From NCBI GenBank assembly GCA_032718475.1, contig JAUCBJ010008126.1, positions 1 through 64,000 of the forward strand: a DNA stretch of 64,000 nt, given 5' to 3'. Positions 2,912 to 64,000 of the stretch are shown here, one piece after another. The notes below the pieces were generated by a model. It made no database searches and was not told where the DNA came from. It saw nothing but the letters and a program-made list of their open reading frames with translations. Position 1 is the first letter of the stretch, and each line of letters starts with the position of its first letter. Source of the stretch: Nemertoderma westbladi. Its lineage: Eukaryota; Animalia; Xenacoelomorpha. The translations under genes and the position numbers were made by a program.

Positions 2912-3005
2912 GCTTCCCATTATGTTGTGGCCAGCCTGTGCTACGAATACTGTAGGTCACTATAGGTACTAAGTGTATTATGTTAATAAATTGTCCTTTA
3001 ACTAG

Positions 3006-10197: not shown

Positions 10198-10375
10198 AAA
10201 ACAACTAATTTATTAAATTTACTAAAATATCTACTATAATTATTGTCAGAGATACAGTATAGCGTTGGGTACTACCGGCCCGGCACTCATACCATAATAA
10301 TTAATTACTGTGGAACGAAATAATTTATATGATAATTTGTTCTGCTAATATTATCAATTGACGTTGTTTATTCAG

Positions 10376-15794: not shown

Positions 15795-16373
15795 AATTCC
15801 CGCCACCCAAATTTAACAAAACTGTCACTTTAACACTCGTGAATATTTGTGCGGAGATCTCTCTTGACCTAAATCCACCTACAAATCCTTCGGATACTCG
15901 TAACGCCAACCAATAGGTTTCGATATCTCTTCCCGATTTATTAGTTATTTTAAAAAAATTCTACCTGTTAAAAATTTCTGAGATTATTTCTTGCACCTGC
16001 CATACTATTATTTAAAAGTACATATTTTTATTACATTAATATTTATGTAGCCCAACATTAATTAAGTTATCTATCTCAGCTGCTGATTTACTCCATTTCT
16101 GATTAATTTACCCATTGGTATATTATTCTAAATAATCATAAATAAATACTTAATACTTACACATTTGATATTTTTTATTATTTTTAAACATTCAATAACA
16201 TAGATTCCAAATTCTTGCTTGTGACTACAGTATGACTAATGGCAATATATTTATTAATTATTGTGTCTTCTTTTGGAATTCTCGCATTCAATGCGGTAGT
16301 TCTCTTATCGTACGGCCGCCATTAGTAGGCGTTCACTGGTCAACCTAATATTGTAAGGAAAAGTGACGGAAAA

Positions 16374-18088: not shown

Positions 18089-19398
18089 TACAATATATGA
18101 TTATAATATTACTAATATTCTCGCACTGTTTATTCATCGCGCAGCACCAGTACCAGCACCAGCTGCCATTTATTAATCGATATTACATAGACAAGAATGG
18201 TCATGAGAGACTAATAAACTCGAAAACTGAAGTAAACATTACATATCTAAAAATGTAATAAGTGTCGGATATATAATACTGTAGTTTAAAATACGATCGT
18301 TTTCGATCGACGGTACATTTTTGAGTTCATAGTGAGTCTTACAAAGTTTTCGTTGCACTGATCCTCTGGGAGGTGAGCTTCTGCTGCTAATCGACTAAGG
18401 ATTTATAGTCAAAGTTCAAAAGCGAGCATTTGCTAATTCTTGCTTTTAATGAGCTATTGCTGATCGTATTGCTGTTTGTTCGTATGATAGGATATTTCTT
18501 TGCCCTAAATAGAAGTCCAAGGGAAGTGACGGAGTGAAGGGGACTCACAGTGGCATAGAATCCACTAACTCGTAGATGAGAGAGTTATTCGCATACCGCC
18601 TCAAACATAACAGGTTTCTGAAAATATGAAGATGTTTCCCATCTTACATGTCAATTGCTGTTGTTGACAGCGAGCCCAAATGGAATCTTAGACCACACAG
18701 GATTGATACCATACTGATACTTAGTAATTCGTACATAAACTACATATAATAACTGCGGTGTACTAACTGTAACTGCTGAAATATCACTGAAGACACCTTT
18801 TTTTAAACTCTTGTAGCTAAAGATTGAAATCGAAAATAATAATTTCTTATAGTTTAATAGATAGTATAATAGTTTCATAGGTCTTTGTTTTGTACACACA
18901 AGGTATCTGTCAGCTTTTAGAGCTTAGGTGTAGGTATGGCTGACTTAGTAACTGACGTCTATATAACTAATCTGATAAGAGTATGGAGTATTCGCCATAA
19001 AGTATGTTTCTAATTTCCTTTATACATGGCTAGTTCATTTGATTTTGGCTCGCGCCAATGTTTGATGAACATACACTTATATCCCTGACATCGGTGCCAG
19101 TTTATTGGTGTATAGTGGACACAGTTAATATTTCCATACCAATTAATTGGTATTAATCCGATTGGTTTGTGTTTAATAACTAATTATTCTTTGTTTTAAT
19201 TTCCGATAAAATGCGAGGTCTGTAACAGAGACGATCCGATCGAAAACTAATGGTATTCGAGATTGATAAAGTGTTTATTCCAAAATTGTAACATTACTCA
19301 ACGCCGTTAGTAACAGCGAGTTGTTATTTAGCACTTTACAACTTTAGAGGACATTACAGCATTGTATTGGCCTGTACATTTAGTATTATATTTGGTGT

Positions 19399-21982: not shown

Positions 21983-24429
21983 CTACTACTACTACTAGGA
22001 TCGGCATGCTGCATTGCAGCTGCATTTTTAAGAATGCTGTGCCGGCTTGTCAACAAAATTGCACCGCCACAACTCCCTATCACCCATGACATTTGCTAGA
22101 TCATCCGCATCTTTAAGGCCAGTGTCCTTTAAGATGCGTCTCAAGAAAGTCATGGGCTGTCCACCATGCTTATTCACTCCATGAGGCTGCCAAAGTACAA
22201 GATTATGCACTGGCTGGTCCTCACGGCGAAAGCAGTGTCCTGCAAAGCGGAGGCGATTTTGTTCTAGTGTCAAGCTTGGGGGAACCAATGAGACACCTCC
22301 AATGTTATATAGTGTCTGGTTGGAGATGTGTGCATTGTACTTGACACAATGAACCCGGCGTAGCATTCTTGTGAATGTGCCATCCAGAGATTTGGTGTCC
22401 TCAGCATTTAGAGCCCAGCATGGACTCCCGTAGAGGAGTACTGGAACTACTGCTGCTCTAAATAATCGGACCTTAAGTTTCCGATTAATTCTCGGTGACT
22501 TCCAAATCCTGGAAAGCCTATTCAAAGCTGCCCATGCCTTTCCCTTACGTATTCGAAGGTCCTCACCTGACTTCCGGATCCATGATCCCAGGTAACAGAA
22601 GTCGTCCACATGCTCAAGCATACCATCCTTTGAGCTTATGCTCATCCGATCAGAGACTTGCTGAGGACTTTCAAAGTTAACTGTCAGAATTTTGGTCTTT
22701 CTGGAGTTAATAAAAAGACCAACACTAGAAGCAGCATGTTCTAATGAGCCGAGGAGCCGTTGGGCTCCCTCTAATGATTCTGAGAGTACTCCTAAGTCAT
22801 CAGCAAAGTCTAGATCAGTTAGGTACTTGGCAGGATTTCCTCGACTTCTGGAGCCAGAAGGCGGAGTTATCATCACCCCATCATCATTATAATGATCTAA
22901 GGACATGCGTAGAACATAGTCAACCACAATAATGAACAAGAATGGTGCAAGTGTGTCTCCTTGGAGGACGCCCCATAACACTTCAAATGGTTCTGTGTCA
23001 CCGTCAACAGTAGACACAAATGTTGTCGAACCATCGTATACTGATCTGATTGCTGCAATAATTTCATCAGGAATCCCATATAATGAAAGTATGCTGAACA
23101 TACGTGAGCGAGAGACTGAATCAAAGGCCTTGAAGAAGTCAACAAAGATAACAGCCAGATGCCTGTCTTTCTTTTTTGATAACTCTTCAATTATCCTTCT
23201 AAGTGCCAAAGTGGGCTCCATGGTCCCACGACCTTTACGGAACCCATTCTGATTTCCACGGAGCAGTCTCTCCGTGGTCCGCCATTTAATAGAATCCTAT
23301 TGTATAGCTTTGCAGCAATCGAGATCAATGAGATTCCCCGAAAAGAACCATAGAGTGTTAGGTTGCCCTGCTTGGGAACTGGCACCAACTTATTTGTTTT
23401 CATTTCTTGTGGGACTCTTGTTGTTCGGTACATGTCTACTATGATGGGATAGATGAGCTTTAAACACTCAGGTATTTTAAAGACCTCAGGGGGAACACCA
23501 TCTACTCCACTGGCACGATTGGTCTTAATGCTCTTTGCAGCAGCCTTCACTTCTGCAAAGGAGATATCGCCAATGGGAATATCTGGGAGTACAGACTCAG
23601 ACACTTTTACTTCTATAAAGTTATCAGGCAATACCCTGTCATTATTGAGGAGCTTTTCAAAGTGGGCTTTCCAACCATTGAGGCGATTGGCTGGTGATTC
23701 AGCCTTAACCTTGGTGGTTGGTTGGCTTTTCCACCCAGTAAGCAGATTGATCGATTTCCATGCCTGGGATGATTGCCTGCTGTCGTCAGCATCATTGATG
23801 GCATCAACCTGTTGGTTTATTAGCTCCTGTAGATTAGCAGAGTACTGCCTGTTCAGGGACCTAGATGCAGCCTTAACTGCATTCTTGGCCGCTGTAGTCT
23901 GTTTGAGTCGGGACTCTTTCTGCGCCTTATGAAGGTCATTTCGGCACTTCTGAATTTTGTTGTCAGTCCAGGGGGCCCTTTTCCTGTTTCGGGGGTATAC
24001 AGGAACTGTTTCTGCAGCTGCTAACTTAACTGCTTCTGTAAAGGCAGTATAGCCCTCACAGTGATCTGCCGCCTCAGAGGCAAGAGCCTCATACCTGTTG
24101 CTCAGCTGTAGTGTGAAGCTGGATCTCACACTTGGCTGTTGCAATATGGAGGACCAGTCATGCCTTGGCAAGGCAGATTTCGTTGTTCTGCTAGCACGCA
24201 GACTAAGTCTTACCTTGGCCACAATAAGGCGGTGATCACTGGAGAAGGGTCGAAGTGTAAATGCATTATAGTCTTGTATAGAGCTCCTGTATTTCCTACG
24301 AAACAGAATATGGTCTATCTGGGACTTGTGACCACTGGGTCCACTATGAGTCCATAGCTTTCCAGTTCGCTTCTTGAACTGGGTTCCAGCCGAAAACAAT
24401 CCATTTCCAGAGATAAAATCCTGAACCAA
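21983..24429 (-). mobile_element. 5'-truncated RTE-clade non-LTR retrotransposon (APE C-terminus + RT) with one frameshift
   Basis: APE motifs SQIDHIL and SSDHRL. RT motifs NQNGFRKGR, FVDFFKAFDSV, GVLQGDTLAPFLF, DLDFADD and YLGS. Frameshift near 23280. (TAG)n tail at ~21978-21998. TSD TCAAATACTA at 21973-21982 and 24430-24439. Confidence 0.95.
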
Positions 24430-24762: not shown

Positions 24763-25153
24763 ATTGTGGGGCGAGCCACGAAGTAAGTGAGCCTTACTAC
24801 TAGGATCGGCATGCTGCATTGTAGCTGCATTTTTAAGAATGCTGTGCCGGCTTGTCAACAAAATTGCACCGCCACAACTCCCTATCACCCATGACATTTG
24901 CTAGATCATCCGCATCTTCAAGGCCAGTGTCCTTTAAAATGCGTCTCAAGAAAGTCATAAAGTCAGAAAGTAGTGGTTCCATTAATCAACCTGTTGTTCT
25001 GTCGTTCTGTCGCTATTTTTCTGCAGTGTTCAATTTTGCACAATAATAACTCGGCCAATGCTCGATGAAATCTATCCAAACTTGGTACACATGTTGTTTG
25101 GCAAAAGTTTAGAAATTTTCCAAGTGGCCTTCCGCCTTCGAGAAGCTAAGATA
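24763..25153 (-). mobile_element. Dispersed non-autonomous repeat copy 2 (inverted relative to 15582-15794), interrupted by an RTE 3' fragment
   Basis: ATTGTGGGGCGAGCCAC ... CCAAACTTGGTACACATGTTGTTTG ... CCTTCGAGAAGCTAAGATA. Confidence 0.6.
24795..24958 (-). mobile_element. 5'-truncated (~165 bp) copy of the RTE 3' end
   Basis: Matches ~21990-22153 with about 3 substitutions and carries a short TAC-repeat tail. Confidence 0.93.
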
Positions 25154-25711: not shown

Positions 25712-25941
25712 GTATGTTAAATATAATTGTGTTAAATAAAGATTAAATACAAATAATGTTATATAAATTATTAATTTATTTCCAAATTTAATTCATTGTT
25801 CTTCTTATTACCTTATTGTTATTCAAATGGAGATAATTAACTTGATAATTTATATTTTCGTCTTGAATTGTTCGGAATTGTAGGTTTAGGTTCCTACTTT
25901 AAGACAACATCTCTAATAGTTTATTGTTGTTTATATTTTAG

Positions 25942-43166: not shown

Positions 43167-43587
43167 ATGGATTCTGTCGCCTCAAACGAAATTCCAAGAC
43201 AATCGAAGTACTTACCATTCTCAATAGCATCTCTGTTAGATACACACCGGAAGGATGTTGAGGTAGGGAATCCCGAGTTGTCCGACAGTGAGGGGTGTCC
43301 GAGTCCAGATTCCGACGCACAGTATTCGGTCGGATCTCCGAACGATCATCACAAACACCCCATGATCCCGGTAATGTGCAACACAATGCGTCAACTCGAC
43401 ACCGCTGGCCCCAGTATGCCTGCGGCGGATGGAGACAGTTACTTTCAACCCAGACAATCCACTGCTGACATGCTTCCTGTTAGCGGTATACCCAGACTCC
43501 AATCTGCAACATTTCCTCAGCCAATCAACCCCCAGACTAATCATCATTGGCTATATACTTCCCGATACGACCATCAATATTTTCCAA
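43167..43587 (+). CDS. Nedx: Homeobox gene exon 1 with eh1/TN Groucho-binding motif (LPFSIASLL); upstream in-frame ATG at 43104 is an alternative start
   Basis: Open frame MDSVASNE...YFP containing an FSIxxLL eh1 motif. The donor A|GTAAGT (phase 1) joins in frame to the homeobox exon (A+AC = Asn). Confidence 0.85.
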
Positions 43588-43712
43588 GTAAGTTAAACTC
43601 CTACAATATAAATTTAATTAACATAAACTCTAACGTTGGGGCGTTCAATTTCTCGTTTATTTATTTAAGTTTTTTAATTTCTAGCCAAATCACATGCAGT
43701 AAAATACCTTAT

Positions 43713-44477
43713 CACCGCGTTTGTTTAACCCTATTAGCACCGCGTTCGTTTAACCCTATTAGCACCGCGTTTGTTTAACCCTATTAGCACCGCGTTTGTT
43801 TAACCCTATTAGCACCGCGTCTGTTTAACCCTATTAGCACCGCGTTTGTTTAACCCTATTAGCACCGCGTTTGTTTAACCCTATTAGCACCGCGTTTGTT
43901 TAACCCTATTAGCACCGCGTCTGTTTAACCCTATTAGCACCGCGTTTGTTTAACCCTATTAGCACCGCGTTTGTTTAACCCTATTAGCACCGCGTTTGTT
44001 TAATCCTATTAGCACCGCGTTTGTTTAACCCTATTAGCACCGCGTTTGTTTAACCCTATTAGCACCGCGTTTGTTTAACCCTATTAGCACCGCGTTTGTT
44101 TAACCCTATTAGCACCGCGTTTGTTTAACCCTATTAGCACCGCGTTTGTTTAACCCTATTAGCACCGCGTTTGTTTAAACCTATTAGCACCGCGTTTGTT
44201 TAACCCTATTAGCACCGCGTTTGTTTAACCCTATTAGCACCGCGTTTGTTTAACCCTATTAGCACCGCGTTTGTTTAACCCTATTAGCACCGCGTTTGTT
44301 TAACCCTATTAGCACCGCGTTTGTTTAACCCTATTAGCACCGCGTTTGTTTAACCCTATTAGCACCGCGTTTGTTTAACCCTATTAGCACCGCGTTTGTT
44401 TAACCCTATTAGCACCGCGTTTGTTTAACCCTATTAGCACCGCGTTTGTTTAACCCTATTAGCACCGCGTTGTTTAA
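43713..44477. repeat. 25-bp minisatellite in homeobox intron 1 (CACCGCGTTTGTTTAACCCTATTAG), ~30 copies
   Basis: Tandem units read directly; near-perfect. Confidence 0.97.
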
Positions 44478-45041
44478 ATAATCCAAAGCTCTTCTTCCGC
44501 TTATCAAATTAAAGTTATTTTAACAATTTGAACTTTCCAAGAGGACGACGCATCGACAATGTATATAAAGAAATACAATATCGCACATGTATTATTATTA
44601 TTATTATTACTTTTATTTAATCGGACCGTGGCCTATTGTACATACAATAAATGTTTTATAATTAATGATAATTAATTAATTTATAATTAATTATAGCACA
44701 ACAATATAATTATTACAAATAATTACGTTAGTAGTGTGTTACAACGGCCCCGAAGGACTGAATCAGATAAACCGTTATAACAAGCAGAAATAAGATAGTT
44801 ATTAGACTTCGATATACGATTCAACAGGGAGTAAATAGGTACCCGGAGTGTAGTCGTAAAGGTATTAACGCGATTTTGGACGAATATGGTGTCGGCATCG
44901 CCGTTTCTACTATATTTAAATAACTATTGTATTGCAATATTGAAAGGCAAAACACCAGATCTTTGGATCTTTCCACTTTATACTGGAATCGTTCTTCTAC
45001 TATATTTCACATGTAAATATAAATTATTCGTTCTTTGATAG

Positions 45042-45240
45042 ACCAGAAATCGTTCCCTCGACGTCCCCGCAAACCCGGTGTGGAACGGAAACCGAGACAG
45101 GCTTATTCCGCGAAACAGTTGGAACGATTAGAGGAAGAATTCCGCAAGGATAAATACCTCAGTGTCAGTAAACGACTAGATCTATCGGTAAATCTGGGGC
45201 TAACTGAAGTGCAAATAAAAACCTGGTTCCAGAACAGAAG
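45042..45240 (+). CDS. Nedx: Homeobox gene exon 2: ANTP-class NK-like homeodomain to residue 53, Nedx/lms/ceh-19-like
   Basis: TTTGATAG| acceptor. RKPRQAYSAKQLERLEEEFRKDKYLSVSKRLDLSVNLGLTEVQIKTWFQNR(R). The RKPRQAYS and DKYLSV signatures are as I recall for Drosophila lms and C. elegans ceh-19. Donor AG|GTAAGA is phase 2 within R53. Exon 3 is not in the window. Confidence 0.88.
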
Positions 45241-48200
45241 GTAAGACATACTGGTTCCAGAACAGAAGGTAAGACATAACGGTTCCAGAACAGAAGGTAA
45301 GACATAACGGTTCCAGAACAGAAGGTAAGACATAACGGTTCCAGAACAGAAGGTAAGACATACTGGTTCCAGAACAGAAGGTAAGACATACTGGTTCCAG
45401 AACAGAAGGTAAGACATAACGGTTCCAGAACAGAAGGTAAGACATAACGGTTCCAGAACAGAAGGTAAGACATACTGGTTCCAGAACAGAAGGTAAGACA
45501 TACTGGTTCCAGAACAGAAGGTAAGACATACTGGTTCCAGAACAGAAGGTAAGACATACTGGTTCCAGAACAGAAGGTAAGACATACTGGTTCCAGAACA
45601 GAAGGTAAGACATAACGGTTCCAGAACAGAAGGTAAGACATACTGGTTCCAGAACAGAAGGTAAGACATAACGGTTCCAGAACAGAAGGTAAGACATACT
45701 GGTTCCAGAACAGAAGGTAAGACATACTGGTTCCAGAACAGAAGGTAAGACATACTGGTTCCAGAACAGAAGGTAAGACATACTGGTTCCAGAACAGAAG
45801 GTAAGACATAACGGTTCCAGAACAGAAGGTAAGACATAACTGGTTCCAGAACAGAAGGTAAGACATACTGGTTCCAGAACAGAAGGTAAGACATAACGGT
45901 TCCAGAACAGAAGGTAAGACATAACGGTTCCAGAACAGAAGGTAAGACATACTGGTTCCAGAACAGAAGGTAAGACATAACGGTTCCAGAACAGAAGGTA
46001 AGACATACTGGTTCCAGAACAGAAGGTAAGACATACTGGTTCCAGAACAGAAGGTAAGACATAACGGTTCCAGAACAGAAGGTAAGACATACTGGTTCCA
46101 GAACAGAAGGTAAGACATAACTGGTTCCAGAACAGAAGGTAAGACATACTGGTTCCAGAACAGAAGGTAAGACATACTGGTTCCAGAACAGAAGGTAAGA
46201 CATACTGGTTCCAGAACAGAAGGTAAGACATAACTGGTTCCAGAACAGAAGGTAAGACATACTGGTTCCAGAACAGAAGGTAAGACATAACGGTTCCAGA
46301 ACAGAAGGTAAGACATAACTGGTTCCAGAACAGAAGGTAAGACATACTGGTTCCAGAACAGAAGGTAAGACATACTGGTTCCAGAACAGAAGGTAAGACA
46401 TACTGGTTCCAGAACAGAAGGTAAGACATACTGGTTCCAGAACAGAAGGTAAGACATACTGGTTCCAGAACAGAAGGTAAGACATACTGGTTCCAGAACA
46501 GAAGGTAAGACATAACTGGTTCCAGAACAGAAGGTAAGACATACTGGTTCCAGAACAGAAGGTAAGACATACTGGTTCCAGAACAGAAGGTAAGACATAC
46601 TGGTTCCAGAACAGAAGGTAAGACATACTGGTTCCAGAACAGAAGGTAAGACATAACTGGTTCCAGAACAGAAGGTAAGACATACTGGTTCCAGAACAGA
46701 AGGTAAGACATACTGGTTCCAGAACAGAAGGTAAGACATACTGGTTCCAGAACAGAAGGTAAGACATACTGGTTCCAGAACAGAAGGTAAGACATACTGG
46801 TTCCAGAACAGAAGGTAAGACATACTGGTTCCAGAACAGAAGGTAAGACATACTGGTTCCAGAACAGAAGGTAAGACATACTGGTTCCAGAACAGAAGGT
46901 AAGACATACTGGTTCCAGAACAGAAGGTAAGACATACTGGTTCCAGAACAGAAGGTAAGACATAACTGGTTCCAGAACAGAAGGTAAGACATACTGGTTC
47001 CAGAACAGAAGGTAAGACATACTGGTTCCAGAACAGAAGGTAAGACATACTGGTTCCAGAACAGAAGGTAAGACATACTGGTTCCAGAACAGAAGGTAAG
47101 ACATACTGGTTCCAGAACAGAAGGTAAGACATACTGGTTCCAGAACAGAAGGTAAGACATACTGGTTCCAGAACAGAAGGTAAGACATACTGGTTCCAGA
47201 ACAGAAGGTAAGACATACTGGTTCCAGAACAGAAGGTAAGACATACTGGTTCCAGAACAGAAGGTAAGACATACTGGTTCCAGAACAGAAGGTAAGACAT
47301 ACTGGTTCCAGAACAGAAGGTAAGACATACTGGTTCCAGAACAGAAGGTAAGACATACTGGTTCCAGAACAGAAGGTAAGACATACTGGTTCCAGAACAG
47401 AAGGTAAGACATACTGGTTCCAGAACAGAAGGTAAGACATACTGGTTCCAGAACAGAAGGTAAGACATACTGGTTCCAGAACAGAAGGTAAGACATACTG
47501 GTTCCAGAACAGAAGGTAAGACATACTGGTTCCAGAACAGAAGGTAAGACATACTGGTTCCAGAACAGAAGGTAAGACATACTGGTTCCAGAACAGAAGG
47601 TAAGACATACTGGTTCCAGAACAGAAGGTAAGACATACTGGTTCCAGAACAGAAGGTAAGACATACTGGTTCCAGAACAGAAGGTAAGACATACTGGTTC
47701 CAGAACAGAAGGTAAGACATACTGGTTCCAGAACAGAAGGTAAGACATACTGGTTCCAGAACAGAAGGTAAGACATACTGGTTCCAGAACAGAAGGTAAG
47801 ACATACTGGTTCCAGAACAGAAGGTAAGACATACTGGTTCCAGAACAGAAGGTAAGACATACTGGTTCCAGAACAGAAGGTAAGACATACTGGTTCCAGA
47901 ACAGAAGGTAAGACATACTGGTTCCAGAACAGAAGGTAAGACATACTGGTTCCAGAACAGAAGGTAAGACATACTGGTTCCAGAACAGAAGGTAAGACAT
48001 ACTGGTTCCAGAACAGAAGGTAAGACATACTGGTTCCAGAACAGAAGGTAAGACATACTGGTTCCAGAACAGAAGGTAAGACATACTGGTTCCAGAACAG
48101 AAGGTAAGACATACTGGTTCCAGAACAGAAGGTAAGACATACTGGTTCCAGAACAGAAGGTAAGACATACTGGTTCCAGAACAGAAGGTAAGACATACTG

Positions 48201-51200
48201 GTTCCAGAACAGAAGGTAAGACATACTGGTTCCAGAACAGAAGGTAAGACATACTGGTTCCAGAACAGAAGGTAAGACATACTGGTTCCAGAACAGAAGG
48301 TAAGACATACTGGTTCCAGAACAGAAGGTAAGACATACTGGTTCCAGAACAGAAGGTAAGACATACTGGTTCCAGAACAGAAGGTAAGACATACTGGTTC
48401 CAGAACAGAAGGTAAGACATACTGGTTCCAGAACAGAAGGTAAGACATACTGGTTCCAGAACAGAAGGTAAGACATACTGGTTCCAGAACAGAAGGTAAG
48501 ACATACTGGTTCCAGAACAGAAGGTAAGACATACTGGTTCCAGAACAGAAGGTAAGACATACTGGTTCCAGAACAGAAGGTAAGACATACTGGTTCCAGA
48601 ACAGAAGGTAAGACATACTGGTTCCAGAACAGAAGGTAAGACATACTGGTTCCAGAACAGAAGGTAAGACATACTGGTTCCAGAACAGAAGGTAAGACAT
48701 ACTGGTTCCAGAACAGAAGGTAAGACATACTGGTTCCAGAACAGAAGGTAAGACATACTGGTTCCAGAACAGAAGGTAAGACATACTGGTTCCAGAACAG
48801 AAGGTAAGACATACTGGTTCCAGAACAGAAGGTAAGACATACTGGTTCCAGAACAGAAGGTAAGACATACTGGTTCCAGAACAGAAGGTAAGACATACTG
48901 GTTCCAGAACAGAAGGTAAGACATACTGGTTCCAGAACAGAAGGTAAGACATACTGGTTCCAGAACAGAAGGTAAGACATACTGGTTCCAGAACAGAAGG
49001 TAAGACATACTGGTTCCAGAACAGAAGGTAAGACATACTGGTTCCAGAACAGAAGGTAAGACATACTGGTTCCAGAACAGAAGGTAAGACATACTGGTTC
49101 CAGAACAGAAGGTAAGACATACTGGTTCCAGAACAGAAGGTAAGACATACTGGTTCCAGAACAGAAGGTAAGACATACTGGTTCCAGAACAGAAGGTAAG
49201 ACATACTGGTTCCAGAACAGAAGGTAAGACATACTGGTTCCAGAACAGAAGGTAAGACATACTGGTTCCAGAACAGAAGGTAAGACATACTGGTTCCAGA
49301 ACAGAAGGTAAGACATACTGGTTCCAGAACAGAAGGTAAGACATACTGGTTCCAGAACAGAAGGTAAGACATACTGGTTCCAGAACAGAAGGTAAGACAT
49401 ACTGGTTCCAGAACAGAAGGTAAGACATACTGGTTCCAGAACAGAAGGTAAGACATACTGGTTCCAGAACAGAAGGTAAGACATACTGGTTCCAGAACAG
49501 AAGGTAAGACATACTGGTTCCAGAACAGAAGGTAAGACATACTGGTTCCAGAACAGAAGGTAAGACATACTGGTTCCAGAACAGAAGGTAAGACATACTG
49601 GTTCCAGAACAGAAGGTAAGACATACTGGTTCCAGAACAGAAGGTAAGACATACTGGTTCCAGAACAGAAGGTAAGACATACTGGTTCCAGAACAGAAGG
49701 TAAGACATACTGGTTCCAGAACAGAAGGTAAGACATACTGGTTCCAGAACAGAAGGTAAGACATACTGGTTCCAGAACAGAAGGTAAGACATACTGGTTC
49801 CAGAACAGAAGGTAAGACATACTGGTTCCAGAACAGAAGGTAAGACATACTGGTTCCAGAACAGAAGGTAAGACATACTGGTTCCAGAACAGAAGGTAAG
49901 ACATACTGGTTCCAGAACAGAAGGTAAGACATACTGGTTCCAGAACAGAAGGTAAGACATACTGGTTCCAGAACAGAAGGTAAGACATACTGGTTCCAGA
50001 ACAGAAGGTAAGACATACTGGTTCCAGAACAGAAGGTAAGACATACTGGTTCCAGAACAGAAGGTAAGACATACTGGTTCCAGAACAGAAGGTAAGACAT
50101 ACTGGTTCCAGAACAGAAGGTAAGACATACTGGTTCCAGAACAGAAGGTAAGACATACTGGTTCCAGAACAGAAGGTAAGACATACTGGTTCCAGAACAG
50201 AAGGTAAGACATACTGGTTCCAGAACAGAAGGTAAGACATACTGGTTCCAGAACAGAAGGTAAGACATACTGGTTCCAGAACAGAAGGTAAGACATACTG
50301 GTTCCAGAACAGAAGGTAAGACATACTGGTTCCAGAACAGAAGGTAAGACATACTGGTTCCAGAACAGAAGGTAAGACATACTGGTTCCAGAACAGAAGG
50401 TAAGACATACTGGTTCCAGAACAGAAGGTAAGACATACTGGTTCCAGAACAGAAGGTAAGACATACTGGTTCCAGAACAGAAGGTAAGACATACTGGTTC
50501 CAGAACAGAAGGTAAGACATACTGGTTCCAGAACAGAAGGTAAGACATACTGGTTCCAGAACAGAAGGTAAGACATACTGGTTCCAGAACAGAAGGTAAG
50601 ACATACTGGTTCCAGAACAGAAGGTAAGACATACTGGTTCCAGAACAGAAGGTAAGACATACTGGTTCCAGAACAGAAGGTAAGACATACTGGTTCCAGA
50701 ACAGAAGGTAAGACATACTGGTTCCAGAACAGAAGGTAAGACATACTGGTTCCAGAACAGAAGGTAAGACATACTGGTTCCAGAACAGAAGGTAAGACAT
50801 ACTGGTTCCAGAACAGAAGGTAAGACATACTGGTTCCAGAACAGAAGGTAAGACATACTGGTTCCAGAACAGAAGGTAAGACATACTGGTTCCAGAACAG
50901 AAGGTAAGACATACTGGTTCCAGAACAGAAGGTAAGACATACTGGTTCCAGAACAGAAGGTAAGACATACTGGTTCCAGAACAGAAGGTAAGACATACTG
51001 GTTCCAGAACAGAAGGTAAGACATACTGGTTCCAGAACAGAAGGTAAGACATACTGGTTCCAGAACAGAAGGTAAGACATACTGGTTCCAGAACAGAAGG
51101 TAAGACATACTGGTTCCAGAACAGAAGGTAAGACATACTGGTTCCAGAACAGAAGGTAAGACATACTGGTTCCAGAACAGAAGGTAAGACATACTGGTTC

Positions 51201-54200
51201 CAGAACAGAAGGTAAGACATACTGGTTCCAGAACAGAAGGTAAGACATACTGGTTCCAGAACAGAAGGTAAGACATACTGGTTCCAGAACAGAAGGTAAG
51301 ACATACTGGTTCCAGAACAGAAGGTAAGACATACTGGTTCCAGAACAGAAGGTAAGACATACTGGTTCCAGAACAGAAGGTAAGACATACTGGTTCCAGA
51401 ACAGAAGGTAAGACATACTGGTTCCAGAACAGAAGGTAAGACATACTGGTTCCAGAACAGAAGGTAAGACATACTGGTTCCAGAACAGAAGGTAAGACAT
51501 ACTGGTTCCAGAACAGAAGGTAAGACATACTGGTTCCAGAACAGAAGGTAAGACATACTGGTTCCAGAACAGAAGGTAAGACATACTGGTTCCAGAACAG
51601 AAGGTAAGACATACTGGTTCCAGAACAGAAGGTAAGACATACTGGTTCCAGAACAGAAGGTAAGACATACTGGTTCCAGAACAGAAGGTAAGACATACTG
51701 GTTCCAGAACAGAAGGTAAGACATACTGGTTCCAGAACAGAAGGTAAGACATACTGGTTCCAGAACAGAAGGTAAGACATACTGGTTCCAGAACAGAAGG
51801 TAAGACATACTGGTTCCAGAACAGAAGGTAAGACATACTGGTTCCAGAACAGAAGGTAAGACATACTGGTTCCAGAACAGAAGGTAAGACATACTGGTTC
51901 CAGAACAGAAGGTAAGACATACTGGTTCCAGAACAGAAGGTAAGACATACTGGTTCCAGAACAGAAGGTAAGACATACTGGTTCCAGAACAGAAGGTAAG
52001 ACATACTGGTTCCAGAACAGAAGGTAAGACATACTGGTTCCAGAACAGAAGGTAAGACATACTGGTTCCAGAACAGAAGGTAAGACATACTGGTTCCAGA
52101 ACAGAAGGTAAGACATACTGGTTCCAGAACAGAAGGTAAGACATACTGGTTCCAGAACAGAAGGTAAGACATACTGGTTCCAGAACAGAAGGTAAGACAT
52201 ACTGGTTCCAGAACAGAAGGTAAGACATACTGGTTCCAGAACAGAAGGTAAGACATACTGGTTCCAGAACAGAAGGTAAGACATACTGGTTCCAGAACAG
52301 AAGGTAAGACATACTGGTTCCAGAACAGAAGGTAAGACATACTGGTTCCAGAACAGAAGGTAAGACATACTGGTTCCAGAACAGAAGGTAAGACATACTG
52401 GTTCCAGAACAGAAGGTAAGACATACTGGTTCCAGAACAGAAGGTAAGACATACTGGTTCCAGAACAGAAGGTAAGACATACTGGTTCCAGAACAGAAGG
52501 TAAGACATACTGGTTCCAGAACAGAAGGTAAGACATACTGGTTCCAGAACAGAAGGTAAGACATACTGGTTCCAGAACAGAAGGTAAGACATACTGGTTC
52601 CAGAACAGAAGGTAAGACATACTGGTTCCAGAACAGAAGGTAAGACATACTGGTTCCAGAACAGAAGGTAAGACATACTGGTTCCAGAACAGAAGGTAAG
52701 ACATACTGGTTCCAGAACAGAAGGTAAGACATACTGGTTCCAGAACAGAAGGTAAGACATACTGGTTCCAGAACAGAAGGTAAGACATACTGGTTCCAGA
52801 ACAGAAGGTAAGACATACTGGTTCCAGAACAGAAGGTAAGACATACTGGTTCCAGAACAGAAGGTAAGACATACTGGTTCCAGAACAGAAGGTAAGACAT
52901 ACTGGTTCCAGAACAGAAGGTAAGACATACTGGTTCCAGAACAGAAGGTAAGACATACTGGTTCCAGAACAGAAGGTAAGACATACTGGTTCCAGAACAG
53001 AAGGTAAGACATACTGGTTCCAGAACAGAAGGTAAGACATACTGGTTCCAGAACAGAAGGTAAGACATACTGGTTCCAGAACAGAAGGTAAGACATACTG
53101 GTTCCAGAACAGAAGGTAAGACATACTGGTTCCAGAACAGAAGGTAAGACATACTGGTTCCAGAACAGAAGGTAAGACATACTGGTTCCAGAACAGAAGG
53201 TAAGACATACTGGTTCCAGAACAGAAGGTAAGACATACTGGTTCCAGAACAGAAGGTAAGACATACTGGTTCCAGAACAGAAGGTAAGACATACTGGTTC
53301 CAGAACAGAAGGTAAGACATACTGGTTCCAGAACAGAAGGTAAGACATACTGGTTCCAGAACAGAAGGTAAGACATACTGGTTCCAGAACAGAAGGTAAG
53401 ACATACTGGTTCCAGAACAGAAGGTAAGACATACTGGTTCCAGAACAGAAGGTAAGACATACTGGTTCCAGAACAGAAGGTAAGACATACTGGTTCCAGA
53501 ACAGAAGGTAAGACATACTGGTTCCAGAACAGAAGGTAAGACATACTGGTTCCAGAACAGAAGGTAAGACATACTGGTTCCAGAACAGAAGGTAAGACAT
53601 ACTGGTTCCAGAACAGAAGGTAAGACATACTGGTTCCAGAACAGAAGGTAAGACATACTGGTTCCAGAACAGAAGGTAAGACATACTGGTTCCAGAACAG
53701 AAGGTAAGACATACTGGTTCCAGAACAGAAGGTAAGACATACTGGTTCCAGAACAGAAGGTAAGACATACTGGTTCCAGAACAGAAGGTAAGACATACTG
53801 GTTCCAGAACAGAAGGTAAGACATACTGGTTCCAGAACAGAAGGTAAGACATACTGGTTCCAGAACAGAAGGTAAGACATACTGGTTCCAGAACAGAAGG
53901 TAAGACATACTGGTTCCAGAACAGAAGGTAAGACATAACTGGTTCCAGAACAGAAGGTAAGACATACTGGTTCCAGAACAGAAGGTAAGACATACTGGTT
54001 CCAGAACAGAAGGTAAGACATACTGGTTCCAGAACAGAAGGTAAGACATACTGGTTCCAGAACAGAAGGTAAGACATACTGGTTCCAGAACAGAAGGTAA
54101 GACATACTGGTTCCAGAACAGAAGGTAAGACATACTGGTTCCAGAACAGAAGGTAAGACATACTGGTTCCAGAACAGAAGGTAAGACATACTGGTTCCAG

Positions 54201-57200
54201 AACAGAAGGTAAGACATACTGGTTCCAGAACAGAAGGTAAGACATACTGGTTCCAGAACAGAAGGTAAGACATACTGGTTCCAGAACAGAAGGTAAGACA
54301 TACTGGTTCCAGAACAGAAGGTAAGACATACTGGTTCCAGAACAGAAGGTAAGACATACTGGTTCCAGAACAGAAGGTAAGACATACTGGTTCCAGAACA
54401 GAAGGTAAGACATACTGGTTCCAGAACAGAAGGTAAGACATACTGGTTCCAGAACAGAAGGTAAGACATACTGGTTCCAGAACAGAAGGTAAGACATACT
54501 GGTTCCAGAACAGAAGGTAAGACATACTGGTTCCAGAACAGAAGGTAAGACATACTGGTTCCAGAACAGAAGGTAAGACATACTGGTTCCAGAACAGAAG
54601 GTAAGACATAACTGGTTCCAGAACAGAAGGTAAGACATACTGGTTCCAGAACAGAAGGTAAGACATAACTGGTTCCAGAACAGAAGGTAAGACATACTGG
54701 TTCCAGAACAGAAGGTAAGACATACTGGTTCCAGAACAGAAGGTAAGACATACTGGTTCCAGAACAGAAGGTAAGACATACTGGTTCCAGAACAGAAGGT
54801 AAGACATACTGGTTCCAGAACAGAAGGTAAGACATACTGGTTCCAGAACAGAAGGTAAGACATACTGGTTCCAGAACAGAAGGTAAGACATACTGGTTCC
54901 AGAACAGAAGGTAAGACATACTGGTTCCAGAACAGAAGGTAAGACATACTGGTTCCAGAACAGAAGGTAAGACATACTGGTTCCAGAACAGAAGGTAAGA
55001 CATACTGGTTCCAGAACAGAAGGTAAGACATACTGGTTCCAGAACAGAAGGTAAGACATACTGGTTCCAGAACAGAAGGTAAGACATACTGGTTCCAGAA
55101 CAGAAGGTAAGACATACTGGTTCCAGAACAGAAGGTAAGACATAACTGGTTCCAGAACAGAAGGTAAGACATACTGGTTCCAGAACAGAAGGTAAGACAT
55201 ACTGGTTCCAGAACAGAAGGTAAGACATACTGGTTCCAGAACAGAAGGTAAGACATACTGGTTCCAGAACAGAAGGTAAGACATACTGGTTCCAGAACAG
55301 AAGGTAAGACATACTGGTTCCAGAACAGAAGGTAAGACATACTGGTTCCAGAACAGAAGGTAAGACATAACTGGTTCCAGAACAGAAGGTAAGACATACT
55401 GGTTCCAGAACAGAAGGTAAGACATACTGGTTCCAGAACAGAAGGTAAGACATACTGGTTCCAGAACAGAAGGTAAGACATACTGGTTCCAGAACAGAAG
55501 GTAAGACATAACTGGTTCCAGAACAGAAGGTAAGACATACTGGTTCCAGAACAGAAGGTAAGACATACTGGTTCCAGAACAGAAGGTAAGACATAACTGG
55601 TTCCAGAACAGAAGGTAAGACATACTGGTTCCAGAACAGAAGGTAAGACATACTGGTTCCAGAACAGAAGGTAAGACATACTGGTTCCAGAACAGAAGGT
55701 AAGACATACTGGTTCCAGAACAGAAGGTAAGACATACTGGTTCCAGAACAGAAGGTAAGACATACTGGTTCCAGAACAGAAGGTAAGACATACTGGTTCC
55801 AGAACAGAAGGTAAGACATACTGGTTCCAGAACAGAAGGTAAGACATACTGGTTCCAGAACAGAAGGTAAGACATACTGGTTCCAGAACAGAAGGTAAGA
55901 CATACTGGTTCCAGAACAGAAGGTAAGACATAACTGGTTCCAGAACAGAAGGTAAGACATACTGGTTCCAGAACAGAAGGTAAGACATAACTGGTTCCAG
56001 AACAGAAGGTAAGACATAACTGGTTCCAGAACAGAAGGTAAGACATACTGGTTCCAGAACAGAAGGTAAGACATACTGGTTCCAGAACAGAAGGTAAGAC
56101 ATACTGGTTCCAGAACAGAAGGTAAGACATACTGGTTCCAGAACAGAAGGTAAGACATACTGGTTCCAGAACAGAAGGTAAGACATACTGGTTCCAGAAC
56201 AGAAGGTAAGACATACTGGTTCCAGAACAGAAGGTAAGACATACTGGTTCCAGAACAGAAGGTAAGACATAACTGGTTCCAGAACAGAAGGTAAGACATA
56301 CTGGTTCCAGAACAGAAGGTAAGACATACTGGTTCCAGAACAGAAGGTAAGACATACTGGTTCCAGAACAGAAGGTAAGACATACTGGTTCCAGAACAGA
56401 AGGTAAGACATACTGGTTCCAGAACAGAAGGTAAGACATACTGGTTCCAGAACAGAAGGTAAGACATACGGTTCCAGAACAGAAGGTAAGACATACTGGT
56501 TCCAGAACAGAAGGTAAGACATACTGGTTCCAGAACAGAAGGTAAGACATACTGGTTCCAGAACAGAAGGTAAGACATACTGGTTCCAGAACAGAAGGTA
56601 AGACATACTGGTTCCAGAACAGAAGGTAAGACATACTGGTTCCAGAACAGAAGGTAAGACATACTGGTTCCAGAACAGAAGGTAAGACATACTGGTTCCA
56701 GAACAGAAGGTAAGACATACTGGTTCCAGAACAGAAGGTAAGACATACTGGTTCCAGAACAGAAGGTAAGACATACTGGTTCCAGAACAGAAGGTAAGAC
56801 ATACTGGTTCCAGAACAGAAGGTAAGACATACTGTTCCAGAACAGAAGGTAAGACATACTGGTTCCAGAACAGAAGGTAAGACATACTGGTTCCAGAACA
56901 GAAGGTAAGACATACTGGTTCCAGAACAGAAGGTAAGACATACTGGTTCCAGAACAGAAGGTAAGACATACTGGTTCCAGAACAGAAGGTAAGACATACT
57001 GTTCCAGAACAGAAGGTAAGACATACTGGTTCCAGAACAGAAGGTAAGACATACTGGTTCCAGAACAGAAGGTAAGACATACTGGTTCCAGAACAGAAGG
57101 TAAGACATACTGGTTCCAGAACAGAAGGTAAGACATACTGGTTCCAGAACAGAAGGTAAGACATACTGGTTCCAGAACAGAAGGTAAGACATACTGGTTC

Positions 57201-60200
57201 CAGAACAGAAGGTAAGACATACTGGTTCCAACATACTGGTTCCAGAACAGAAGGTAAGACATACTGGTTCCAGAACAGAAGGTAAGACATACTGGTTCCA
57301 GAACAGAAGGTAAGACATACTGGTTCCAGAACAGAAGGTAAGACATACTGGTTCCAGAACAGAAGGTAAGACATACTGGTTCCAGAACAGAAGGTAAGAC
57401 ATACTGGTTCCAGAACAGAAGGTAAGACATACTGGTTCCAGAACAGAAGGTAAGACATACTGGTTCCAGAACAGAAGGTAAGACATACTGGTTCCAGAAC
57501 AGAAGGTAAGACATACTGGTTCCAGAACAGAAGGTAAGACATACTGGTTCCAGAACAGAAGGTAAGACATACTGGTTCCAGAACAGAAGGTAAGACATAC
57601 TGGTTCCAGAACAGAAGGTAAGACATACTGGTTCCAGAACAGAAGGTAAGACATACTGGTTCCAGAACAGAAGGTAAGACATACTGGTTCCAGAACAGAA
57701 GGTAAGACATACTGGTTCCAGAACAGAAGGTAAGACATACTGGTTCCAGAACAGAAGGTAAGACATACTGGTTCCAGAACAGAAGGTAAGACATACTGGT
57801 TCCAGAACAGAAGGTAAGACATACTGTTCCAGAACAGAAGGTAAGACATACTGGTTCCAGAACAGAAGGTAAGACATACTGGTTCCAGAACAGAAGGTAA
57901 GACATACTGGTTCCAGAACAGAAGGTAAGACATACTGGTTCCAGAACAGAAGGTAAGACATACTGGTTCCAGAACAGAAGGTAAGACATACTGGTTCCAG
58001 AACAGAAGGTAAGACATACTGGTTCCAGAACAGAAGGTAAGACATACTGGTTCCAGAACAGAAGGTAAGACATACTGGTTCCAGAACAGAAGGTAAGACA
58101 TACTGGTTCCAGAACAGAAGGTAAGACATACTGGTTCCAGAACAGAAGGTAAGACATACTGGTTCCAGAACAGAAGGTAAGACATACTGGTTCCAGAACA
58201 GAAGGTAAGACATACTGGTTCCAGAACAGAAGGTAAGACATACTGTTCCAGAACAGAAGGTAAGACATACTGGTTCCAGAACAGAAGGTAAGACATACTG
58301 GTTCCAGAACAGAAGGTAAGACATACTGGTTCCAGAACAGAAGGTAAGACATACTGGTTCCAGAACAGAAGGTAAGACATACTGGTTCCAGAACAGAAGG
58401 TAAGACATACTGTTCCAGAACAGAAGGTAAGACATACTGGTTCCAGAACAGAAGGTAAGACATACTGGTTCCAGAACAGAAGGTAAGACATACTGGTTCC
58501 AGAACAGAAGGTAAGACATACTGGTTCCAGAACAGAAGGTAAGACATACTGGTTCCAGAACAGAAGGTAAGACATACTGGTTCCAGAACAGAAGGTAAGA
58601 CATACTGGTTCCAGAACAGAAGGTAAGACATACTGGTTCCAGAACAGAAGGTAAGACATACTGGTTCCAGAACAGAAGGTAAGACATACTGGTTCCAGAA
58701 CAGAAGGTAAGACATACTGGTTCCAGAACAGAAGGTAAGACATACTGGTTCCAGAACAGAAGGTAAGACATACTGGTTCCAGAACAGAAGGTAAGACATA
58801 CTGTTCCAGAACAGAAGGTAAGACATACTGGTTCCAGAACAGAAGGTAAGACATACTGGTTCCAGAACAGAAGGTAAGACATACTGGTTCCAGAACAGAA
58901 GGTAAGACATACTGGTTCCAGAACAGAAGGTAAGACATACTGGTTCCAGAACAGAAGGTAAGACATACTGTTCCAGAACAGAAGGTAAGACATACTGGTT
59001 CCAGAACAGAAGGTAAGACATACTGGTTCCAGAACAGAAGGTAAGACATACTGGTTCCAGAACAGAAGGTAAGACATACTGGTTCCAGAACAGAAGGTAA
59101 GACATACTGGTTCCAGAACAGAAGGTAAGACATACTGTTCCAGAACAGAAGGTAAGACATACTGGTTCCAGAACAGAAGGTAAGACATACTGGTTCCAGA
59201 ACAGAAGGTAAGACATACTGGTTCCAGAACAGAAGGTAAGACATACTGTTCCAGAACAGAAGGTAAGACATACTGGTTCCAGAACAGAAGGTAAGACATA
59301 CTGGTTCCAGAACAGAAGGTAAGACATACTGGTTCCAGAACAGAAGGTAAGACATACTGGTTCCAGAACAGAAGGTAAGACATACTGGTTCCAGAACAGA
59401 AGGTAAGACATACTGGTTCCAGAACAGAAGGTAAGACATACTGGTTCCAGAACAGAAGGTAAGACATACTGGTTCCAGAACAGAAGGTAAGACATACTGG
59501 TTCCAGAACAGAAGGTAAGACATACTGTTCCAGAACAGAAGTAAGACATACTGGTTCCAGAACAGAAGGTAAGACATACTGGTTCCAGAACAGAAGGTAA
59601 GACATACTGGTTCCAGAACAGAAGGTAAGACATACTGGTTCCAGAACAGAAGGTAAGACATACTGGTTCCAGAACAGAAGGTAAGACATACTGGTTCCAG
59701 AACAGAAGGTAAGACATACTGGTTCCAGAACAGAAGGTAAGACATACTGGTTCCAGAACAGAAGGTAAGACATACTGGTTCCAGAACAGAAGGTAAGACA
59801 TACTGGTTCCAGAACAGAAGGTAAGACATACTGGTTCCAGAACAGAAGGTAAGACATACTGGTTCCAGAACAGAAGGTAAGACATACTGGTTCCAGAACA
59901 GAAGGTAAGACATACTGTTCCAGAACAGAAGGTAAGACATACTGGTTCCAGAACAGAAGGTAAGACATACTGTTCCAGAACAGAAGGTAAGACATACTGG
60001 TTCCAGAACAGAAGGTAAGACATACTGGTTCCAGAACAGAAGGTAAGACATACTGGTTCCAGAACAGAAGGTAAGACATACTGGTTCCAGAACAGAAGGT
60101 AAGACATACTGGTTCCAGAACAGAAGGTAAGACATACTGGTTCCAGAACAGAAGGTAAGACATACTGGTTCCAGAACAGAAGGTAAGACATACTGGTTCC

Positions 60201-63200
60201 AGAACAGAAGGTAAGACATACTGGTTCCAGAACAGAAGGTAAGACATACTGGTTCCAGAACAGAAGGTAAGACATACTGTTCCAGAACAGAAGGTAAGAC
60301 ATACTGTTCCAGAACAGAAGGTAAGACATACTGTTCCAGAACAGAAGGTAAGACATACTGGTTCCAGAACAGAAGGTAAGACATACTGGTTCCAGAACAG
60401 AAGGTAAGACATACTGGTTCCAGAACAGAAGGTAAGACATACTGGTTCCAGAACAGAAGGTAAGACATACTGGTTCCAGAACAGAAGGTAAGACATACTG
60501 GTTCCAGAACAGAAGGTAAGACATACTGGTTCCAGAACAGAAGGTAAGACATACTGGTTCCAGAACAGAAGGTAAGACATACTGGTTCCAGAACAGAAGG
60601 TAAGACATACTGGTTCCAGAACAGAAGGTAAGACATAACGGTTCCAGAACAGAAGGTAAGACATAACTGGTTCCAGAACAGAAGGTAAGACATACTGGTT
60701 CCAGAACAGAAGGTAAGACATACTGGTTCCAGAACAGAAGGTAAGACATACTGGTTCCAGAACAGAAGGTAAGACATACTGGTTCCAGAACAGAAGGTAA
60801 GACATAACTGGTTCCAGAACAGAAGGTAAGACATACTGGTTCCAGAACAGAAGGTAAGACATACTGGTTCCAGAACAGAAGGTAAGACATACTGGTTCCA
60901 GAACAGAAGGTAAGACATAACTGGTTCCAGAACAGAAGGTAAGACATACTGGTTCCAGAACAGAAGGTAAGACATAACTGGTTCCAGAACAGAAGGTAAG
61001 ACATACTGGTTCCAGAACAGAAGGTAAGACATACTGGTTCCAGAACAGAAGGTAAGACATACTGGTTCCAGAACAGAAGGTAAGACATACTGGTTCCAGA
61101 ACAGAAGGTAAGACATAACTGGTTCCAGAACAGAAGGTAAGACATACTGGTTCCAGAACAGAAGGTAAGACATAACTGGTTCCAGAACAGAAGGTAAGAC
61201 ATACTGGTTCCAGAACAGAAGGTAAGACATACTGTTCCAGAACAGAAGGTAAGACATACTGGTTCCAGAACAGAAGGTAAGACATAACTGTTCCAGAACA
61301 GAAGGTAAGACATAACGGTTCCAGAACAGAAGGTAAGACATACTGGTTCCAGAACAGAAGGTAAGACATACTGGTTCCAGAACAGAAGGTAAGACATACT
61401 GGTTCCAGAACAGAAGGTAAGACATACTGGTTCCAGAACAGAAGGTAAGACATACTGGTTCCAGAACAGAAGGTAAGACATACTGGTTCCAGAACAGAAG
61501 GTAAGACATACTGGTTCCAGAACAGAAGGTAAGACATAACGGTTCCAGAACAGAAGGTAAGACATACTGGTTCCAGAACAGAAGGTAAGACATACTGGTT
61601 CCAGAACAGAAGGTAAGACATAACTGTTCCAGAACAGAAGGTAAGACATACTGGTTCCAGAACAGAAGGTAAGACATAACTGTTCCAGAACAGAAGGTAA
61701 GACATAACTGGTTCCAGAACAGAAGGTAAGACATACTGGTTCCAGAACAGAAGGTAAGACATACTGGTTCCAGAACAGAAGGTAAGACATACTGGTTCCA
61801 GAACAGAAGGTAAGACATACTGGTTCCAGAACAGAAGGTAAGACATACTGGTTCCAGAACAGAAGGTAAGACATACTGGTTCCAGAACAGAAGGTAAGAC
61901 ATAACTGGTTCCAGAACAGAAGGTAAGACATACTGGTTCCAGAACAGAAGGTAAGACATAACTGTTCCAGAACAGAAGGTAAGACATAACTGGTTCCAGA
62001 ACAGAAGGTAAGACATACTGGTTCCAGAACAGAAGGTAAGACATACTGGTTCCAGAACAGAAGGTAAGACATACTGGTTCCAGAACAGAAGGTAAGACAT
62101 ACTGGTTCCAGAACAGAAGGTAAGACATACTGGTTCCAGAACAGAAGGTAAGACATACTGGTTCCAGAACAGAAGGTAAGACATACTGGTTCCAGAACAG
62201 AAGGTAAGACATAACGGTTCCAGAACAGAAGGTAAGACATACTGGTTCCAGAACAGAAGGTAAGACATACTGGTTCCAGAACAGAAGGTAAGACATAACT
62301 GGTTCCAGAACAGAAGGTAAGACATACTGGTTCCAGAACAGAAGGTAAGACATACTGGTTCCAGAACAGAAGGTAAGACATACTGGTTCCAGAACAGAAG
62401 GTAAGACATACTGGTTCCAGAACAGAAGGTAAGACATAACTGGTTCCAGAACAGAAGGTAAGACATAACGGTTCCAGAACAGAAGGTAAGACATACTGGT
62501 TCCAGAACAGAAGGTAAGACATACTGGTTCCAGAACAGAAGGTAAGACATACTGGTTCCAGAACAGAAGGTAAGACATACTGGTTCCAGAACAGAAGGTA
62601 AGACATAACTGTTCCAGAACAGAAGGTAAGACATACTGGTTCCAGAACAGAAGGTAAGACATAACTGGTTCCAGAACAGAAGGTAAGACATACTGGTTCC
62701 AGAACAGAAGGTAAGACATAACTGTTCCAGAACAGAAGGTAAGACATACTGGTTCCAGAACAGAAGGTAAGACATAACTGTTCCAGAACAGAAGGTAAGA
62801 CATACTGGTTCCAGAACAGAAGGTAAGACATAACTGTTCCAGAACAGAAGGTAAGACATAACGGTTCCAGAACAGAAGGTAAGACATACTGGTTCCAGAA
62901 CAGAAGGTAAGACATACTGGTTCCAGAACAGAAGGTAAGACATACTGGTTCCAGAACAGAAGGTAAGACATACTGGTTCCAGAACAGAAGGTAAGACATA
63001 CTGGTTCCAGAACAGAAGGTAAGACATACTGGTTCCAGAACAGAAGGTAAGACATACTGGTTCCAGAACAGAAGGTAAGACATACTGGTTCCAGAACAGA
63101 AGGTAAGACATACTGGTTCCAGAACAGAAGGTAAGACATAACGGTTCCAGAACAGAAGGTAAGACATACTGGTTCCAGAACAGAAGGTAAGACATACTGG

Positions 63201-64000
63201 TTCCAGAACAGAAGGTAAGACATAACTGGTTCCAGAACAGAAGGTAAGACATACTGGTTCCAGAACAGAAGGTAAGACATAACGGTTCCAGAACAGAAGG
63301 TAAGACATACTGGTTCCAGAACAGAAGGTAAGACATACTGGTTCCAGAACAGAAGGTAAGACATACGGTTCCAGAACAGAAGGTAAGACATAACGGTTCC
63401 AGAACAGAAGGTAAGACATACTGGTTCCAGAACAGAAGGTAAGACATACTGGTTCCAGAACAGAAGGTAAGACATACTGGTTCCAGAACAGAAGGTAAGA
63501 CATACTGGTTCCAGAACAGAAGGTAAGACATAACTGGTTCCAGAACAGAAGGTAAGACATACTGGTTCCAGAACAGAAGGTAAGACATAACGGTTCCAGA
63601 ACAGAAGGTAAGACATACTGGTTCCAGAACAGAAGGTAAGACATACTGGTTCCAGAACAGAAGGTAAGACATACTGGTTCCAGAACAGAAGGTAAGACAT
63701 ACTGGTTCCAGAACAGAAGGTAAGACATAACTGGTTCCAGAACAGAAGGTAAGACATACTGGTTCCAGAACAGAAGGTAAGACATACTGGTTCCAGAACA
63801 GAAGGTAAGACATAACGGTTCCAGAACAGAAGGTAAGACATAACTGGTTCCAGAACAGAAGGTAAGACATACTGGTTCCAGAACAGAAGGTAAGACATAA
63901 CTGTTCCAGAACAGAAGGTAAGACATACTGGTTCCAGAACAGAAGGTAAGACATACTGGTTCCAGAACAGAAGGTAAGACATAACGGTTCCAGAACAGAA
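45223..64000 (+). repeat. 28-bp satellite CTGGTTCCAGAACAGAAG|GTAAGACATA derived from the homeobox exon 2/intron 2 junction, ~670 copies, open at window end
   Basis: The first unit is the genuine exon end (45223-45240) plus the first 10 intron bases. Repeats continue uninterrupted to 64000. Confidence 0.98.

Follow-up and report, generated by a model that had tools for sequence, protein, structure and literature searches.

How does a gene choose its 5′ splice site (donor) when that site is repeated several hundred times behind the authentic one? This question is raised by a homeobox gene of Nemertoderma westbladi (Xenacoelomorpha), located on contig JAUCBJ010008126.1 of assembly GCA_032718475.1. 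We analyzed positions 1 to 64,000 of its forward strand (64,000 nt, hereafter the window), in which the border between exon 2 of this gene and the following intron has been amplified into a 28-bp tandem array that runs to the end of the window (Table 1). We consider it likely that the array is a donor-spanning ('mirage') minisatellite that has reached satellite size and is probably neutral, and that the gene splices from the first donor. Below, we describe the array, the reads that cover it and the gene that hosts it, and weigh this reading against its alternatives.

The repeat unit is an exon–intron junction

Tandem Repeats Finder (TRF) reported 669.6 copies of the unit, with a period of 28 and 98% matches. 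Since the array reaches the end of the window, the number of copies is at least 669 and the length of 18.8 kb is a lower bound. The unit consists of the last 18 bases of exon 2, which encode W48-F-Q-N-R52 and provide two bases of R53, followed by the first 10 bases of the intron. The donor motif AAG|GTAAGA was found 668 times, always within the array and never in the remaining window. These numbers agree well with an earlier, sequence-only reading of this DNA, which had described about 670 donors in an array built from the end of exon 2 and its donor.

Splitting the array at the donors yielded 667 units, of which 581 matched the consensus exactly. Nearly all variants were 1-base insertions or deletions, in mixed combinations, within the 3–5 bases that join the intron part to the exon part. 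The donor core was intact in all copies except one, which had lost a single base, and one partial copy of 14 bases was present within the array. Variants were denser near the array start and beyond about 55 kb; an uninterrupted run of identical units is listed in Table 1.

Elsewhere in the window, the best resemblance to the 28-bp unit still contained 10–11 mismatches out of 28, and no loose end at the unit was present among the ends listed for the read contigs. A 22-base junction pattern matched none of 20 related loci, and no array was found at codon 53 in 13 metagenome loci that carry the WFQNR codons. We considered a transposon origin of the unit and rejected it, as the unit adjoins homeobox coding sequence without a break at its 5′ end, both in the assembled sequence and in the read contigs. 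The earlier proposal that the array arose in place is supported.

Apart from donors, we detected few potential signals in the array. AATAAA and ATTAAA were both absent and the longest pyrimidine run was 4; without a pyrimidine tract or a poly(A) signal, the array offers donors and little else. The predicted RNA fold of positions 45180-45420 was no better than that of shuffled sequences (z 0.17). A coding role of the plus strand was also rejected, because stops occur in all three frames. The minus strand (45223-64000) is stop-free in every frame over about 6,259 codons; this stems from the unit itself and could lead gene callers astray.

Table 1. Features of the N. westbladi window, in window coordinates
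Feature	Position	Strand	Basis
Likely coding exon 1 (ATG to donor CAA|GTAAGT), 140 codons + 1 base, 421 nt	43167..43587	+	open frame, splice signals, phase, motif
eh1-like repressor motif FSIASLL	43218..43238	+	exon 1 translation
Intron 1	43588..45041	+	acceptor with pyrimidine tract
25-bp tandem array inside intron 1, 30.8 copies	43709-44477		TRF
Dispersed repeat inside intron 1	about 44707-44922		read contigs
Exon 2, 199 nt, homeodomain residues 1-53, ends in phase 2 of R53	45042..45240	+	translation, Pfam
First (authentic) 5′ splice site AAG|GTAAGA	45238..45246	+	sequence
28-bp tandem array, exon/intron junction unit	45223..64000	+	TRF, donor motif count, unit splitting, read contigs
248 identical units in an uninterrupted run	46984..53927	+	array split into units
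Six further large tandem arrays (including that of intron 1), unrelated 21-48 bp units	1-5909, 6080-10203, 16370-18106, 27070-32698, 34505-39410, 43709-44477		TRF

Read contigs support a large array

Three short-read runs (X1, X2 and X3, the last from the same sample as X1) contain exon 1; none is recorded as RNA, and X1 and X2 are marked as possible sources of the present DNA. In both X1 and X2, a single contig without differences from the window links intron 1 with exon 2 and reaches the end of unit 1, with a depth of 28.8 and 18.3, respectively. Over the unit, the summed contig depth in these two runs reached 14,000–52,000, or about 560–2,700 times single-copy, although such sums do not equal copy number, since short overlapping contigs inflate them. 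Furthermore, a junction variant from the window recurred in an X1 contig. The sequence-only reading had asked for a check that a few copies had not been expanded by the assembly, and a few copies could not produce the depth of hundreds to thousands of times single-copy in X1 and X2.

The single-copy contigs of X1 and X2 both stop exactly at the end of unit 1 (position 45250), as expected where the read graph enters a repeat, or in the case of allelic differences at unit 2. Contigs of a run from a different sample with the same species label (X5) covered the dispersed repeat of intron 1, yet none of them fell on exon 2 or the unit; as gaps between contigs prove nothing, this run was not used.

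The host is likely a Nedx/lms/ceh-19-family homeobox gene

Exon 2 matched the Pfam Homeodomain family (E 9e-19), and its homeodomain was 75–83% identical to those of nine aligned relatives, with up to 87% among the relatives listed. The phase of exon 1 (421 nt) is compatible with that of exon 2, and each of the two exons has an open frame and good flanking splice signals. Exon 1 itself matched no Pfam family and gave no significant BLAST match to a hemichordate relative (P0008; best E 0.11), so its call is based on frame, splice signals and the eh1-like motif, which by eye resembles an FSIxxIL sequence near the N-terminus of relatives.

A search limited to longer proteins identified 452 relatives with E ≤ 1e-15 among 651 candidates; the family and continuation counts for these longer relatives refer to the 120 matches listed of the 452. 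All named relatives among them were invertebrate, and the best matches came from crinoids, a hemichordate, other echinoderms and chelicerates. The name ceh-19 or ceh-19-like was borne by 17 of the 120, and none was named Nedx or lms. The link between these names comes from the literature, in which CG13424 belongs to the pair of fly genes reported as most similar to ceh-19 (PMC3638342) and is described as identical to lms/Nedx (PMC3002276, PMC2982225), and in which Lms is described as carrying a putative eh1 motif (PMC3002276). On the strength of the ceh-19 names and the CG13424 literature, the host is likely a member of this family, with which it shares an NK-like homeodomain, an N-terminal eh1 motif and, among the matches listed, exclusively invertebrate named relatives; it differs in being represented here by exons 1 and 2 alone. 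Neither a named Nedx sequence nor its diagnostic helix-1 motif was found by full-text search or in the supplements of PMC6466738, PMC9977156 (file 1 excluded) and PMC6107062.

Among the matches listed, 119 of 121 WFQNR stretches run on as an R-T-K-W-K-like sequence, and the part beyond R53 has a median length of 70 residues. Because the relatives remain conserved after R53, another exon, continuing R-T-K-W-K-K-Q as they do, is expected behind the array.

Donor choice in known donor-spanning repeats

The sequence-only reading had presented the array as a new puzzle, whereas minisatellites that span a donor are already a described class (PMC1557585). In intron 7 of human F7, the case studied best, a 37-bp variable number tandem repeat creates 5–9 identical donors, of which only the most upstream was used across 50 constructs (Borensztajn et al. 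2006, PMC1557585). Upon mutation of this first donor the next one was used, and no competition was reported even from stronger sites (PMC1557585). As in N. westbladi, the first unit of the F7 repeat lies across the exon–intron border and is followed by 5′ splice sites identical to the authentic one. In contrast, F7 has 5–9 rather than at least 669 copies and 4 rather than 18 exon bases in its unit, and its splicing was assayed, whereas that of our gene is predicted from sequence. The same paper summarizes four further genes with a reiterated donor. Both 6-16 (25 pseudo-sites) and CBS intron 13 (15–20) use the first donor and the next two, while LMNB2 (10–15 × 100 bp) and PDGFA (16–18 × 81 bp) use the first donor only (PMC1557585). 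None of the four is a homeobox gene, and all have about 25-fold or more fewer copies. Together with F7, 6-16 and CBS speak against taking the donor nearest to the acceptor as the default winner.

Tandem repeats across exon–intron borders are also described in an invertebrate, as the amphioxus 'mirage' minisatellites of Adh3, the globins, TnC and PGBD5, which reportedly leave splicing undisturbed, are unstable in length and are homogenized in their middle (PMC3087553, PMC3902484). These are far smaller (3–6 units of 150–160 bp in the globins, units of 10–72 bp in Adh3) than the >18 kb observed here. Very long introns, to which the array-filled intron can be compared, occur in the gigantic Y-linked genes of Drosophila; these introns are satellite-rich and are not known to be built from the gene's own splice site. 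They are far larger than the intron considered here, reaching megabases, and their genes are reported to be expressed (PMC11207136).

What is unusual in N. westbladi is the size of the array, about 25 times that of the largest human case in PMC1557585, and its conserved developmental host gene. Narrow searches of the open-access literature returned no larger donor-spanning array, from which we do not claim that it is the largest known, and no genome-wide survey of such repeats was recognizable by title among the matches listed.

A probably neutral array with likely first-donor splicing

Like a 'mirage' minisatellite, the array runs head to tail, its first unit lies across the exon–intron border, and the splice signal is intact in its copies (668 motifs in about 669 copies). 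We propose that it started as a duplication at a pre-existing intron border, caused by slippage or unequal exchange, and that it was spread and homogenized by recombination, in the same neutral process that would have produced the other arrays of the window. Donor 1 would be chosen through exon definition from the exon-2 acceptor and through first-come commitment. With donor 1, exon 2 measures 199 nt, compared to 227–283 nt with donors 2–4 and >300 nt from donor 5 onward. By analogy with the known cases, we infer use of the first donor with a possible minor leak to donors 2–4. The remaining copies would then be inert intron filler, with a longer intron as their main effect. If the gene is expressed and cleanly spliced, the rule that the first donor wins would extend from 5–26 competing sites to about 700, and to an invertebrate that is not chordate-like, making the array a natural substrate for studying commitment versus proximity in donor choice.

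Reading through donor 1 gives AGG TAA at 45239-45244, with the stop at 45242-45244, which confirms the earlier statement that downstream donors would lead to a stop after residue 53. The same reading had considered the resulting transcripts as likely targets of nonsense-mediated decay (NMD). For NMD, a minimal distance of 50–55 nt between stop and junction is the general rule, although it may not apply in this animal. The stop lies 24 nt before the junction for donor 2, 52 nt for donor 3 and ≥80 nt for more distal donors. The NMD prediction would thus hold only for the more distal donors, with donor 3 at the limit, and not for donor 2, whose product would escape junction-dependent decay by the 50–55 nt rule if this is the last intron.

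Such an escape is central to a different explanation, in which the array acts as a rheostat. Leaky use of donors 2–4 would generate stop-containing mRNA, of which the donor-2 form would escape decay and encode the eh1 motif and homeodomain residues 1–53 without the C-terminus, with array length setting dose or timing. The short distances from stop to junction for donors 2 and 3 fit this idea, as do the exons of <300 nt for donors 2–4 and the use of two extra donors in 6-16 and CBS (PMC1557585), and the truncation would remove the conserved C-terminal part that was seen in the matches listed (median 70 residues). However, a leak to donors 2–4 would be independent of the other 660 copies, the F7 donors did not compete even when stronger sites were present (PMC1557585), and the unrelated arrays in intron 1 and in the flanks indicate that expansion needs no function. 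We therefore regard a rheostat as unlikely. Marginally less probable again is the fuller version based on satellite length, in which hundreds of U1 sites would hold or delay the nascent RNA and the leak to donor 2 would yield a decay-resistant eh1–homeodomain(1–53) competitor. If a rheostat did operate, the locus would naturally put first-come donor choice to the test, at 25–100 times the scale of the human cases. It would be far more important if expression or a trait were found to follow array length.

The number of donors also raises the possibility of a U1 small nuclear ribonucleoprotein (snRNP) sink, in which the nascent RNA sequesters U1 at a level relevant to the cell. This would draw on the 668 donor motifs, each of which agrees with the U1-pairing consensus at 7 of 11 positions, a match that is nevertheless not stronger than that of the intron-1 donor (8 of 11). 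Moreover, the U1 pool comprises 10^5–10^6 particles per cell (a mammalian figure), against which a few nascent transcripts with 700 sites each are small, so that we give this explanation hardly any credence.

Evidence against the neutral reading, and further alternatives

Several observations weigh against a neutral array that is spliced from its first donor. All precedents have 5–26 copies and come from mammals and amphioxus, and applying them to 670 copies is an extrapolation. The clustering of variants at the unit junction, next to an intact donor core, comprises too few independent events to call selection, and neutrality leaves it unexplained. In X3, the unit reached a depth of only about 50 times single-copy. 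Both exon 3 and the end of the array fall beyond the window, so that the gene is known from exons 1 and 2 alone. Finally, codon 53 is read straight through without an intron in all 13 loci that carry WFQNR (of 20 metagenome loci, several of them near-duplicates), and 10 of 17 short WFQNR-containing relatives continue past R53, showing that the intron is not universal.

The X3 data bear on the length of the array. At face value they suggest only about 50 copies, as could be the case if the array is real and its assembled length is wrong, for example due to multiplication of identical units by the assembler. The 248 consecutive identical units would be compatible with such an error. The unit depths in X1 and X2 speak against it, as does the recurrence of the window's junction variant in an X1 contig. 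In addition, GATC and GANTC sites are missing from the unit, so that it could be underrepresented in a library prepared by enzyme cutting; the library type of X3 is not recorded. The depth ratios do differ among X1, X2 and X3, but contig depth is not copy number. We find a wrong assembly length rather improbable.

The absence of exon 3 from the 18.8 kb behind exon 2 could also mean that we are looking at a dead or crippled gene copy or allele, either because exon 3 was cut off by a break or insertion at the site of the array or because the array blocks productive transcription. Loss of the gene may be tolerated, given that Drosophila lms nulls are reported to be viable (PMC3002276) and that the family is described as lost in vertebrates (PMC2982225). 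On the other hand, exons 1 and 2 show open frames of matching phase and good splice signals, the identity of exon 2 to the relatives listed reaches 87%, and flies are reported to express genes with megabase introns (PMC11207136). A dead copy appears improbable to us on this evidence.

The age of the intron at codon 53 was judged from 34 short relatives, a length class that favors proteins ending near R53. Of these, 17 contain WFQNR: 10 run on past R53, 4 end there, 2 diverge behind it (one of them from Capitella) and 1 is cut at R52. Most of the remaining 17 break off a few residues before. A Lytechinus pictus model (P0009) and one further close relative also end at R53. That proteins end at this residue in several lineages suggests that the intron is older than the array, and we infer that it is old and was patchily lost, its age being derived from protein ends and not from DNA. 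The endpoint of P0009 is the same place at which read-through of donor 1 would end, and this model may be an annotation that misses exon 3.

Alternatively, the intron may have been born from the duplication itself, by a Rogers-type intron gain in a gene whose codon 53 was previously uninterrupted. The 13 intronless metagenome loci, which are all of the informative ones, would agree with this, and the intron, after its first four bases, continues with seven that are loosely similar to the codons expected past R53, albeit by eye and post hoc. Yet in annelid, sea urchin and other lineages, relatives end or diverge immediately behind R53. If splicing joined the first AG|GT to the AG of the last copy, the in-frame stop would also be kept, and the array provides no pyrimidine tract. 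We consider intron gain very unlikely.

The array lies in an array-rich window

Could the overlap between an array and a donor have arisen by chance? In total, nine arrays occupy 42,031 of the 64,000 bases (66% of the window). The eight others comprise six large and two small arrays with units unrelated to one another, and two of them likewise have one dominant unit with few variants. We estimated that about 0.6% of donors would come to lie inside a seed unit, corresponding to several hundred arrays per 100,000 donors. This estimate is rough: its birth rate takes the 8 other arrays over the 22 kb of DNA outside arrays, in a single window that was picked for its arrays. In such array-rich surroundings, the overlap can be explained by chance, and selection is not needed. 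On this evidence, the array is extreme in size yet an ordinary outcome in a genome where tandem arrays form readily, and probably a harmless by-product. It illustrates that the exon border of a conserved gene can seed a satellite of tens of kilobases.

Between the arrays, the window contains further elements. A retrotransposon fragment at 22028-24429 (minus strand) contains a reverse transcriptase domain (RVT_1, E 5e-20) and is split over two overlapping frames; a stretch of 164 bp close to its 3′ end is found again at 24795-24958 (98%). An element at 13385-14264 has inverted arms that are long and nested (54, 206 and 74 nt; 85–93% complementary) and resembles a miniature inverted-repeat transposable element (MITE) or a foldback element. 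A stop-free frame of 294 codons at 25920-26804 (plus strand) is rich in K, E and S; it had no Pfam match and is possibly an exon of another gene or element.

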